A DNA stretch of 64,000 bases from an uncultured Gemmatimonas sp. (lineage in GTDB: Bacteria > Gemmatimonadota > Gemmatimonadetes > Gemmatimonadales > GWC2-71-9): NCBI GenBank assembly GCA_964619465.1, contig CAZUES010000001.1, positions 123,440-187,439 on the forward strand, in the 5' to 3' direction. Positions 21,001 through 24,000 of this stretch are shown here, in pieces (position 1 is the stretch's first letter; each line of letters begins with the position of its first letter). Position numbers: made by a program.

Positions 21001-24000
21001 GCAGCTTGGCCTGGGCTTCCAGGTTGAGATCGCCGACCTCGTCGAGGAACAGCGTGCCTCCATCGGCCATTTCGAAGCGGCCCATCCGGCGCTCCACCGC
21101 GCCGGTAAAGGCGCCGCGTTCGTGGCCGAACATTTCGCTCTCGACCAGATCGCGCGGAATCGCGGCGCAGTTGACCGAGACGATGGGACGTCCCGCCCGG
21201 CGGCTCGCGGTGTGGATCGCGTTGGCCACCAGCTCCTTGCCGGTGCCCGACTCGCCCAGAATCAGTACCCGGGCTTCGGTCGGCGCGACCTGGGATATTG
21301 CGCTGCGCACCCGCTGCAGCTCCGGGGTGGTCCCGATCAGCTCGGCCCGAGTGCGCGACAGCTGGGATTTGAGGACCCGATTCTCGGCCTGGGTCCGGGT
21401 CAGTTCCAGGGCGGAGCGGATGGTGACCAGGACGGCTTCCGGGGTGAGCGGCTTTTCCAGGAACTGGAAGGCGCCGTGCTTGATGGCCCGCACCGCGTCG
21501 GTCAGTTGGGCTTTGCCACTCATCATGATGACGGGGGTCACGGGGTCCCGTTCCCGGATCGCGGCCAGGGTTTCGATCCCGTCCGGACCTGGCGGCATCA
21601 TCAGGTCGAGCAGGATGGCGTCCGGGCGGATTTCCTCGAGCGTCAGCAGGGCGGTGTTGCCGTTGGGGGCCTCGGCGACGTCGAACCCTTCGGCTTTGAG
21701 CAGCGCACCAAGCATCCGGCGGATGTTGGCTTCGTCGTCGACGATCAGAATCCGTGTCGTCATCGCCAGTTCCTTCGCCGGTCGGCAACCCGGCGTTCAA
21801 CGAATGGTCGGTCGGCAGGCCGTGGTCTGGCGCTCTCCGAGGTCAGCGGGAGCCAGATCACCATGGTGGCTCCGCCTCCTTCGGTCTCTCCCACCTCGAT
21901 GGTGCCCTGGTGGAGATCGATCGCCTGTTTGACGATGGCCAGGCCGAGTCCGGTGCCATCGGCCTTGTCCGTGAAGTAGGGCTCGAAGATGCGGCTCTGC
22001 TTTTCCTTCGCAATGCCGGGGCCCTGGTCCGCGATAGACACCCGAACCCCTCCGTCCCATGGACGGATCGTCACGTCGATCCGACCCTCTCCGTGCATCG
22101 CTTCCGAGGCGTTCCGCAGCAGATTGGCCACCGCGCGGCGCAGCGAGTCGTAATGGCCGGTCACATGCGGGGTGGCCGGATCGACCCAGAGGTGGCCTTT
22201 GACCGCGTCCGGCAGCGAGGTTCGCAGCAGTTCGCCCAGCAGCTCGCCCAGGTCGACATCGGCGGGAGGGCCTTCGGGGAGGCGGCCCAGATTGGCGAAG
22301 TCCCGGGCCAGTTGCTCGAGACGGGTCGATTCCGCCCGGAGCACCTCGAGGGCCTCCTCCTGATCCTGGGTTGCGGTTCGGCCCAGCGAGGACACCGCAA
22401 AACGGATCGGGGTGAGCGGATTCTTCATTTCGTGCGCGACGCGTCGGGCCACTTCGCGGAATGCCCGCAGTCGCTCCGACTCGAGTTCGGCGCGTCGGGC
22501 CTGCGACAGGCCATCCGCCATATCCCGGAGCGCGGTGCGAAGAGCGGCGAATTCCGGCGCGCCGGCCTTAGGCGGGTCAGGGGGCAGCGGCTCGTTCCGT
22601 TGGATCCGGCCGATCCAGCCGACCAGGTTATCGATCGGCTGGCTCAGCTGACGGGCCAGATTGTTCCCCAGGAATACTGCGAACACCACCAGGATGGATC
22701 CCATCACCGCCAGCACGATGGCCAGTCCTCGGGTCAGGCGGCTCTGGTAGAACTCGGCCCGTTGGGACAGGGCCAGCTGGCGGCTCAGGACGTCGCGATG
22801 TGCCTGAACGGCCTGGTGTTCGGCAGGAGTGAGCCGGGTGGTGTCCAGGGTGGCGAAGAGGTCACGTCCCGATTGCCGCAGCGGCTGGATGACGATCTGG
22901 GCCGGGGCCCCGGGATTGTTGGTCAGGGATGAGTAGGCCCATCCGAGCAGGGCAAACGCCGACGGCGCTCCGAGCAGGAGCAGCACGAGGGAAACCCGGC
23001 TTCGAAAGGTCAGGGCGCGCATGAGAGAGGTATTCTAACCCGCCTTCGTCGGGTGCGGACCGGGGGGAGGTGATGTCGCGTCGGGGCAGCTGATGTGTTG
23101 CGTTGACGCAACGCCCGATGGTGGCTACTGTGCGTTAAGCACGCAACAGGCGGCGGAGTCTCTGTGGCATTGCTTCTGCAGATAATTGCGTGCTCTAGGG
23201 CAATGCCATTGTCCGGAACGAGTACCAGACATCTTAGGAACGCTATGTCTCTGTCCCAGCGCTGGAAGGTCGTTCGGGTCCAGATTGCGGTGTGGGTGGC
23301 CGTGTCCGGTTTGGCGGTGCCTCTTACCGCACAGAGCCTGACCTCGGGATCGCTGCAGGGCGTCGTGGTTGGCGTGGACGGCAGCCCGCTCAGCGGGGTT
23401 CAGGTCTCGATCGAGACGGCTGCTGGAGGGGCGGTTGCGGAGTTTCAGACCGGCTTCAGCGGCAGCTTTGGTCTTCGATTGGTTGCGGCGGGCGAGTATC
23501 GGGTTCTGGTCGAACAGGCCGGCTATCAGCCGGTGCGTCGGATCGGCGTCCTGGTGGCTCCCGGGCAGCAGACCTCGATCAGGATCCTTCTGGAGCGCCG
23601 TCCGCCCCCGATCGTCGCCGTACAGGACCAGGTCGAACCGGCTTCGCCCGCCGGGATGGCTCGCGCGCGGCTGGTCAGCCGGCTCGAGCTGACCAGCCAC
23701 GAGGCTCGTCGCGATCTGTCCGACCTCGGTGCCAACCTGACGGAGCTGGTTACCCCGTTCGACGGGCGTGCCGGCCTGGCTCTGGCGGCCGGCGGCCTGC
23801 CGGGCTGGCGGAGCCGCCTGGTCGTCGACGGTGTGCCGGAAACGTCGTTGTCGCATCCCGGCTTTCCCGATCAGCCCGCCGTCACGCCGATCTTTGCTCG
23901 CGATGGACTCGACCAGGTTTCCGTTTTCGGTGCCCCGGTCGACGCCGAATGGCGAGGTACGCTCGGGACCACGATTGCTGCGCAATCACGGCGCGGCGGC

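Follow-up and report, generated by a model that had tools for sequence, protein, structure and literature searches.

A conserved palindrome upstream of -24/-12 promoter elements in an exopolysaccharide locus of a Gemmatimonadales bacterium

We analysed a 64-kb stretch of DNA (the window; 65% G+C) from a Gemmatimonadales bacterium, in which a palindrome, GTTGCG-N4-CGCAAC, recurs in an exopolysaccharide (EPS) locus. The gene map, made with Pfam and NCBIfam, has on the minus strand, in this order, a histidine kinase, a response regulator/sigma-54 activator (an enhancer-binding protein, EBP), an Omp85-like gene and a DUF4390 gene. Divergent from the kinase operon, a long polysaccharide locus runs along the plus strand. 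Its first operon encodes a TonB-receptor-like protein, a small carboxypeptidase-regulatory-like protein, a polysaccharide deacetylase, a FemAB-family protein, a DegT aminotransferase and a 498-aa protein. Two large Big_2 proteins and a GT2 glycosyltransferase lie between this operon and the second, which carries the carbamoyltransferase, SxtJ, MBOAT, GNAT, FkbH-like, ATP-grasp and GT2/ADH genes; the third consists of a Wzy_C protein and an SGNH hydrolase and is followed by an acyltransferase and a flippase. The palindromes stand at the heads of the TonB-receptor-like, carbamoyltransferase and Wzy operons (Table 1). The deacetylase scored 342.2 against the XrtA-system family TIGR03006 (cut-off 276.2) and the FemAB protein was barely above the cut-off of the XrtA-associated family TIGR03019 (261.0, cut-off 260.35), while TIGR03108 and TIGR03097 were also matched in the window, both under their cut-offs. 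No exosortase gene was found in the 64 kb.

The palindrome was searched for in the window with at most one mismatch, and the chance level was taken from expectation and from 100 shuffles. Four matches were obtained (23097, 41789, 55185 and 62082) against 0.44 expected, a number that none of the 100 shuffles reached. The first three had been described in an earlier note on this DNA, and their coordinates and sequences were all correct on re-checking. The fourth (GTTGCGccacCGCATC) lies inside a GT4 glycosyltransferase gene (61558-62742) and is lost once a flanking T and A are added to the pattern. The resulting 18-mer, TGTTGCG-N4-CGCAACA, was found with at most one mismatch only at 23096, 41788 and 55184, all of them intergenic; the earlier note had already drawn attention to the flanking (a)tGT. 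The degenerate form TGTnGCG-N4-CGCnACA, derived from relatives, returned the same three window sites and no others (0.30 expected). Non-coding DNA makes up ~6.9% of the window and contains all three copies (P ~3e-4), in agreement with the rarity and the non-coding placement on which that note had built its case. With a weight matrix built from 33 related sites, the three copies scored 22.5-26.2 bits and the next best site of the window 10.7 bits. The sites end in CGCAACG (copy 1), TGCAACA (copy 2) and CGCAACA (copy 3), and the flanks of the three copies are mutually unrelated.

A -24/-12 element of the sigma-54 type, overlooked in the earlier picture of these gaps, is present downstream of each copy, on the strand of the genes. 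Such elements were scored on both strands of the window by an ad hoc consensus count (maximum 22). The three best matches of the window are the intergenic elements at 57781, 41845 and 55231, with the element at 23165 close behind; the three palindrome-linked elements are among the four best intergenic ones, and only two intragenic matches (19.5/22) score in between. The distance from the palindrome centre to the GG is 61.5 bp for copy 1, 49.5 bp for copy 2 and 39.5 bp for copy 3, so that, relative to the predicted start sites, the palindromes lie near -87, -75 and -65. No copy overlaps a -24/-12 element or a predicted start site. At the Wzy promoter transcription is predicted to start right next to the ATG at 55259, and translation may therefore begin at a codon further on. 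The three spacers contained no sigma-70-type promoter (consensus scan), no terminator-like hairpin and no Rfam family. From their sequence and position, the -24/-12 elements are presumably used by sigma-54.

Table 1. Positions of the palindromes, promoter elements and regulatory genes in the window (UAS, upstream activating sequence; TM, transmembrane segment; HTH, helix-turn-helix; a dot marks features given without a strand)
Feature	Position	Strand	Sequence	Remarks
Response regulator/sigma-54 activator	20387..21763	-		Pfam: receiver, AAA+ and Fis-type HTH (HTH_8); GESGTGK and GAFTGA present
Histidine kinase	21760..23022	-		Pfam: TM-HAMP-HisKA-HATPase; divergent from the copy 1 region
Palindrome copy 1	23096..23113	.	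TGTTGCGttgaCGCAACG	22.5 bits; proposed UAS of the TonB-receptor-like/XrtA-type EPS operon
Second, distorted site	23129..23148	.	TGTGCG-N7-CGCAACA	34 bp from the copy 1 centre; putative function
Sigma-54 -24/-12 promoter (predicted)	23165..23180	+	TGGCATtgcttCTGCA	TGGCAT-N5-CTGCA; 19/22; 51 nt after copy 1, 65 nt before ATG 23245
Weak candidate site	32065..32082	.	TGTTGCAtttaGCCCACA	8.0 bits; upstream of the first Big_2 gene; 170 bp upstream of the 32243 element
Sigma-54-like promoter	32243..32258	+	AGGCCTgcatcTTGCC	Upstream of the first Big_2 gene; identical in the window, L166 and L169
Sigma-54-like promoter	36613..36628	+	TGGTCCgttccTTGCC	Upstream of the second Big_2 gene; 16/16 identical in L081
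Palindrome copy 2	41788..41805	.	TGTTGCGtgagTGCAACA	23.3 bits; proposed UAS of the carbamoyltransferase-SxtJ-MBOAT... operon
Sigma-54 promoter (predicted)	41845..41860	+	GGGCACcgaacTTGCT	GGGCAC-N5-TTGCT; 20/22; 39 nt after copy 2, 35 nt before TTG start 41896
Palindrome copy 3	55184..55201	.	TGTTGCGcttgCGCAACA	Perfect 18-mer; 26.2 bits; proposed UAS of the Wzy_C/SGNH operon
Sigma-54 promoter (predicted)	55231..55246	+	TGGCACcggccATGCT	TGGCAC-N5-ATGCT; 20/22; 29 nt after copy 3
Best sigma-54 consensus of the window	57781..57796	+	TGGCACcatgaTTGCT	21/22; before the Acyl_transf_3/flippase genes

Both elements were followed into related bacteria, whose loci or contigs are designated by L-numbers; L166 is a close relative (L167 and L168 are copies of its region from other samples) and L001, L006 and L008 are more distant. 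Upstream of the TonB-receptor-like orthologue, TGGCAT-N5-CTGC(A/G) is kept in L166 (81% protein identity), L001 (50%), L006 and L008 (~38-39%), the spacers being otherwise unalignable across the five genomes. Copy 1 is identical in L166, its N4 spacer included, with diverged flanks; to judge from these alignments it is lineage-restricted. The extra CGCAAC reported earlier at 23142-47 is real. It forms the right arm of the distorted site next to copy 1, which is kept in L166 as TGTGCGttgagtgTGCAACA, and reads TGCAAC there. The carbamoyltransferase spacer was aligned in seven genomes (the window and six relatives with 83-96% protein identity, L081, L084, L085, L170, L171 and L172). Invariant columns form two islands, GGC..C.A.CTTGC and the palindrome (T)GT.GC....(.)CAAC(A), and the palindrome has conserved arms and a free N4 spacer in the six relatives and in many metagenome contigs. 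The counterpart of copy 3 in L085 (TGTTGCGaggaTGCAACA) lies upstream of the Wzy_C gene, with an equal 29-nt gap to TGGCAC, an unrelated intervening sequence and the promoter TGGCACtcactGTGCA. Conservation at orthologous positions was thus found upstream of the carbamoyltransferase, Wzy and TonB-receptor-like genes. The other extra CGCAAC, at 55144-49, is present as reported, but it falls in the 3' end of the upstream ORF, and the ~130 nt 5' of the L085 palindrome contained none.

We also fetched 80 metagenome contigs with a carbamoyltransferase of 65-80% identity. Many contigs of the 74-80% identity group carry a related dyad at most 300 bp upstream of this gene, which gave the consensus TGTnGCG-N4-CGCnACA (that is, TGT-N12-ACA). 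Copies head other EPS operons as well: DUF3473 deacetylase/FemAB/DegT in L098, MBOAT in L171 and a methyltransferase in L172; in L093 a copy adjoins FemAB and DUF3473 homologues. Tandem palindromes were seen upstream of a single sigma-54 promoter in L170 (6952-7010, 41 bp apart) and in L084 (9880-9917, 20 bp apart), separated by whole helical turns, as would be expected if the binding of dimers seeds a higher oligomer.

Allowing at most one mismatch, the motif occurred 32 times in 0.84 Mb of related EPS loci and four times in 1.2 Mb of control Gemmatimonadota DNA (~11-fold enrichment). The control density was about equal to that predicted from base composition, so that the motif is at background level in the control DNA. 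In the seven loci with gene calls, comparison of site positions with the gene tables placed all 10 sites in intergenic DNA. The two outcomes that the earlier note had named as speaking against its observation, similar density elsewhere and lack of conservation at orthologous positions, were thus both decided in its favour. A strong -24/-12 element (GG/GC and at least six of the seven auxiliary positions, 25-130 bp off and pointing away from the site) was present near 14 of the 33 sites (42%) compared to 1.1% of all positions; with a laxer cut-off the figures were 20 of 33 and 6.3%. The centre-to-GG distances cluster near 40, 50, 60, 70, 83 and 91 bp, and the Rayleigh test peaked at 10-10.5 bp (R 0.43-0.64, p 1e-4 to 4e-3 depending on the threshold; at 10.5 bp R was 0.52-0.64 with p about 1e-3). 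Here and in the promoter counts some orthologous sites were counted more than once, and these p-values are optimistic. This periodicity is the pattern expected of an activator that reaches the polymerase from one face of the helix.

Within the palindrome, conservation is uneven. Position 4 in the relatives is T in 54%, G in 26%, C in 12% and A in 8% of cases, while the outer TGT/ACA is 88-95% conserved. Positions 4 and 15 vary independently, as only one of the 24 non-T/A pairs is complementary and 22 mismatches occur among 40 sites. These patterns indicate that the functional unit is 18 bp long, TGT...ACA, with positions 4 and 15 outside recognition. They bear on whether the palindrome works as a nucleic-acid structure (a terminator or attenuator hairpin, a REP-like element or a cruciform) or is a functionless chance or recent copy. 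Its 6-7-bp G+C-rich arms and 4-nt loop could fold, and copies 2 and 3 lie downstream of co-directional genes. However, no T-run follows any copy, no terminator-like site or Rfam match was found, the pair 4/15 shows no compensatory change, and it is the arm sequence and not mere complementarity that is conserved; copies of a mobile element would not be expected to have unrelated flanks, and chance is excluded by the shuffle, degenerate-motif, enrichment and promoter-association counts. The hairpin or terminator was rejected on these grounds, and the structural and chance explanations taken together are extremely improbable. Because the arm sequence is conserved, positions 4 and 15 do not covary and no T-run is present, the palindrome reads as two protein-contacted half-sites. 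The sequences support the three copies being one shared functional cis-regulatory site, with the dyad expected for a dimeric DNA-binding protein.

The inner 14 bp, TTGCG-N4-CGCAA, resemble the 5-4-5 boxes of NnrR/FNR-like regulators. A CRP/FNR-type factor could then act by class II activation at an overlapping sigma-70 promoter, and the three window copies do contain TTGCG-N4-(C/T)GCAA, with weak TAnnnT-like hexamers discernible by eye ~20 nt downstream. By contrast, the first arm base of such a box would be the free position 4, and the most conserved bases, TGT/ACA, lie outside it. Orthologues differ in the sequence ~20 nt downstream but keep the -24/-12 element further on. With the consensus scan for sigma-70-type promoters negative and the hexamers unconserved, this explanation was dropped as very improbable.

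The motif is conserved, non-randomly placed, linked to conserved -24/-12 elements and helically phased with them. Sigma-54 holoenzyme does not open DNA without an AAA+ enhancer-binding protein, which recognizes a dyad site by means of its C-terminal Fis-type HTH (PMC1569441 and established knowledge). Since the palindrome is the sole shared conserved element upstream of promoters that require an EBP, we read it as an enhancer. On these comparisons it is probably a UAS for a dimeric Fis-type-HTH bacterial EBP (bEBP) of the NtrC family that would control an XrtA-type EPS regulon. The observation of the earlier note is confirmed, and its reading was right in substance: a shared, dimer-type site does occur at operon heads. 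"Operator" was probably the wrong word for it, because the site does not overlap the promoter and the sigma-54 promoter downstream needs an AAA+ activator; it is restated here as a sigma-54 enhancer. In the proposed mechanism, a bEBP dimer would bind the palindrome at about -65, -75 or -87 and assemble into an active AAA+ oligomer, perhaps aided by weaker neighbour sites such as 23129-23148. The oligomer would contact sigma-54 RNA polymerase on the same helix face, at the -24/-12 promoter that lies 40-62 bp downstream, and this contact would lead to open-complex formation. At least three operons might be switched on jointly in this way: TonB-receptor-like/deacetylase/FemAB/DegT, carbamoyltransferase-to-GT2/ADH and Wzy/SGNH.

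Several observations weigh against the enhancer. In L001, L006 and L008 the orthologous promoter retains its -24/-12 element but has no counterpart of copy 1; either another activator serves it in these genomes or it does not need the palindrome. The sigma-54-like promoters 32243, 36613 and 57781 lack a strong palindrome. The last has none within 130 bp and no counterpart at the same place in L085. Carbamoyltransferase contigs below 80% identity often have the palindrome, but the canonical GG-N10-GC was not always found. Most textbook UAS lie farther from the promoter than these palindromes do, usually 80-150 bp upstream of the start site. The rpoN gene is not in the window, the promoter scoring is crude, and the whole case is computational.

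Some of these points would suit a dimeric factor other than an EBP that modulates the sigma-54 promoter as a repressor, anti-activator or accessory protein, for example by blocking or bending the DNA between a more distant enhancer and that promoter; the palindrome would then be an operator, as the earlier note had it, in the narrow meaning of the term. Dyad symmetry alone does not identify a protein family, the sites are unusually near the promoters (29-51 nt), several sigma-54-like promoters of the locus do without the palindrome, and at the TonB-receptor-like promoter of L001, L006 and L008 activation would be independent of it. However, no site overlaps a -24/-12 element or a predicted start, and no further island of conservation in the aligned spacers qualifies as the actual enhancer. 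The helical phasing and the TGT-N12-ACA layout, which is like that of DctD sites (see below), fit an activator that touches the polymerase. Furthermore, sigma-54 promoters absolutely need an EBP (PMC1569441), and the palindrome is the only shared upstream element. We consider a non-EBP factor unlikely and retain the enhancer.

The arrangement of the proposed enhancer and its promoter was compared with known systems. The PrsR PEP-CTERM box of Proteobacteria is a unit of motif 1 (17 nt, ending in TTTACA), a spacer of 63 ± 11 nt (range 32-92) and a sigma-54 motif. Haft et al. (2006, PMC1569441), who found it in front of PEP-CTERM genes and in no phylum other than Proteobacteria, attributed it to PrsR. 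The sigma-54 dependence of one gene with a PEP-CTERM box has been shown in Aquincola (PMC9850573). The window shares with this unit an upstream motif of ~17-18 nt followed by a variable spacer (29-51 nt) and a GG/GC sigma-54 motif, EPS loci with XrtA-associated genes (TIGR03006 and TIGR03019 above cut-off) and, in both, an NtrC-family response regulator with a Fis-type HTH as the predicted binder. By contrast, none of the window sites ends in TTTACA, the motif occurs in Gemmatimonadota, and the downstream genes are biosynthetic or encode outer-membrane proteins (TonB-receptor-like, carbamoyltransferase, Wzy_C) instead of PEP-CTERM proteins. No PEP-CTERM tail was seen by eye at the C-termini of the TonB-like protein, g26275, both Big_2 proteins and g30388. 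The kinase and the EBP of the window score under the PrsK and PrsR cut-offs (TIGR02916 and TIGR02915), so they are not PrsK/PrsR.

The DctD UAS, 5'-TGTGCGgnnntCCGCACA-3', is an experimentally defined 18-bp site (Rhizobium dctA), and related sites precede the EPS clusters of Vibrio vulnificus, where DctD drives RpoN-dependent EPS gene clusters (PMC11077940). Like the window sites, it is an 18-bp inverted repeat with a TGT start, an ACA end and G+C-rich inner arms. Its binder is a dimeric group I bEBP and it often occurs in multiple copies, features that the window site may share, binding there being proposed. However, the sequences do not match, as only TGT, G7, C12 and AC(A) coincide and the inner arm GCG/CGC of the window is shifted by one position (TGTnGCG vs. 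TGTGCGG). In addition, the Vibrio sites lie further upstream (-125 to -450), and NCBIfam does not identify the window EBP as DctD.

Dyad sites for Fis-type-HTH dimers upstream of -24/-12 promoters, helix-face dependent at short range, include the NifA UAS (TGT-N10-ACA) and the sites of NtrC (TGCACC-N5-GGTGCA) and GlrR (TGTC-N10-GACA). The NifA (16 bp), NtrC (17 bp) and GlrR sites differ from those of the window in spacing or inner bases, and we know of none reported from Gemmatimonadota. The window unit has a -24/-12 element downstream on the gene strand, a non-overlapping dyad of ~16-18 bp, and co-occurrence and constrained spacing of the two. It is best filed in the bEBP enhancer/sigma-54 promoter class: it would work like the PrsR box and the DctD site and matches neither in sequence.

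The protein that would bind the palindrome is, from these parallels, probably a bEBP, and the kinase/EBP pair at 20387-23022 is a candidate by proximity, copy 1 lying next to this divergent operon both in the window and in L166. By its domains and motifs, the EBP of this pair is a complete activator of the GAFTGA type. The EBP scores under the cut-off of every named NCBIfam EBP family (PrsR 381.7 vs. 502.6; NtrX 398.6 vs. 600), and the kinase reaches 84.8 against the PrsK cut-off of 300. In Rhodobacter sphaeroides, the direct targets of NtrY/NtrX include genes for the envelope and for extracellular polysaccharide as well as the operon of the pair itself (PMC7240162). The window pair is likewise a kinase with an NtrC-family regulator, and NtrX is among the three best NCBIfam matches of the EBP; the EBP, however, is under the NtrX cut-off, and the kinase is much shorter than NtrY, with no PAS domain seen. 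The pair adjoins the DUF4390 gene, and linkage to DUF4390 is a feature of ntrYX in Betaproteobacteria.

To place the pair in its wider context, we fetched 80 loci around EBP homologues, 63 of which are Gemmatimonadota orthologues in a block HK-EBP-Omp85-like-DUF4390...PBP-TyrRS (HK, histidine kinase). The recognition helix TDR(A/P)NLYRRM(K/R)RLG is near-invariant in these ~63 genomes, which is compatible with a conserved target motif; since the window and L001 have the same helix, a change of specificity does not account for the lack of a palindrome at the conserved promoter of L001. On the other side, the EBP belongs to a core block in ~63 genomes otherwise devoid of EPS genes and of the palindrome, and a sigma-54 promoter was present upstream of the kinase in only one of 55 blocks. 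The palindrome was also considered as an autoregulatory site of the kinase/EBP operon and was rejected as such, no motif having been found within 10 kb in any of the ~63 core blocks. Near the 85 carbamoyltransferase loci, the only EBP genes were two distant paralogues, in loci without the motif. Because orthologous blocks lack the motif, proximity is weak evidence for the adjacent pair as binder. We regard this pair as a possible binder, with the balance of probability lying elsewhere: an unlinked PrsR-like or other EBP is more likely, and a non-EBP factor less likely.

The Big_2 genes carry features of their own. The earlier note had linked the half-sites TGTTGCA upstream of both genes (32065 and 36510) with the palindrome. 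Both exist, but as bare half-sites they are not enriched, with 22 occurrences of TGTTGC[AG] in the window, 14 of them within coding sequence. The site at 32065 keeps the TGT-N12-ACA frame in the window, L166 and L169 with both flanks diverged, whereas the one at 36510 is not conserved. With weight-matrix scores at background, the half-sites were rejected as family members, and 32065 was retained as a weak candidate. The 36613 promoter, in front of the second Big_2 gene, has no conserved palindrome with it: neither TGTTGCA 36510 nor the 10.7-bit site at 36332 is conserved relative to L081.

A non-coding block of ~150 nt (32107-32260) is near-invariant in the window, L166 and L169, with diverged DNA upstream, and ends in the sigma-54-like AGGCCTGCATCTTGCC. 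It is conserved far beyond the need of a promoter and may hold several factor sites or a leader element. Directly after the first Big_2 gene, a strong G+C hairpin (36237-36280, CCGGCCGGCGGActtaagaTCCGCCGGCCGG) followed by a T-run is kept in L081 and looks like an intrinsic terminator. The Big_2/Ig-like proteins (32319-36218 and 36691-40323) have C-terminal ends that are identical over at least 70 residues (...GRWVQVEYLVDAVNNRIRLWADGRLVVDATTS...HILVATP), which suggests recent duplication or gene conversion. In the carbamoyltransferase operon, by analogy with the gene calls of relatives, there are probably small genes for a ~50-aa DUF5989 protein after SxtJ (~44110-44300) and for a 79-aa acyl-carrier-like protein before the FkbH-like gene (~48193-48432); by the same analogy, these hint at an FkbH/ACP-dependent acyl modification of the polysaccharide (ACP, acyl carrier protein).

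Other observations concern the DNA on the low-coordinate side of the kinase/EBP pair. An asparagine-synthase-type amidotransferase (window 16035-17945, plus strand; L166 2788-4698) resembles the XrtA/PEP-CTERM amidotransferase (TIGR03108, 571.6 bits, cut-off 816.9). In the window and L166 it lies inside the core block PBP-amidohydrolase-...-DUF4390-Omp85-like-EBP-HK, and it is not in the core block of the other ~60 Gemmatimonadota loci. The upstream region of AsnB contained no promoter and no palindrome, and this gene comes directly after the HNH-like ORF. In the region 15254-16034, a minus-strand ORF (15254-15928) has tblastn matches in many relatives but a low third-position G+C content (GC3 0.58), and the L166 gene calls have instead a plus-strand HNH endonuclease gene (window ORF 15461-16021); the matches are probably antisense-frame conservation. 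In an 807-aa protein encoded at 2058-4481 (minus strand), a thiol-activated (cholesterol-dependent) cytolysin domain (PF01289, 1.3e-28) occurs together with FG-GAP repeats and a region resembling TcdB, an unusual association in a Gemmatimonadales genome from soil. No gene could be placed with confidence in the 1.2 kb (9362-10581) that separate the Ser/Thr kinase-TPR gene from tyrS, and a 367-aa ORF (9096-10199) had no Pfam match.

Gemmatimonadota are abundant in soils and barely studied genetically. No description of a cis-regulatory motif or of a sigma-54 regulon for this phylum was found in the literature searched, and we know of no transcription-factor site for it. The mechanism itself is conventional, a switch of a familiar kind that is new to Gemmatimonadota as far as the literature found goes. 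The outcome of this work is an 18-bp motif, TGTnGCG-N4-CGCnACA, a set of conserved -24/-12 promoters and a model in which several EPS operons, XrtA-associated genes among them, would be under one EBP. Genes for exopolysaccharide and the cell envelope are commonly under sigma-54 control (Francke 2011, PMC3162934), and the model extends this control of the bacterial exterior, together with the PrsR/PEP-CTERM-box paradigm (Haft 2006), to another phylum. It also makes regulon prediction possible in metagenome-assembled genomes. From the motif and its neighbourhood it is conceivable, if rather doubtful, that the palindrome is the site of the core kinase/EBP pair, acting as a master sigma-54 switch for surface polysaccharide across Gemmatimonadota. 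If that is true, the core pair would play the part that PrsKR or NtrYX play in other bacteria, through a short-range, helix-phased enhancer of its own that had not been described before, and Gemmatimonadota would have a defined regulon.

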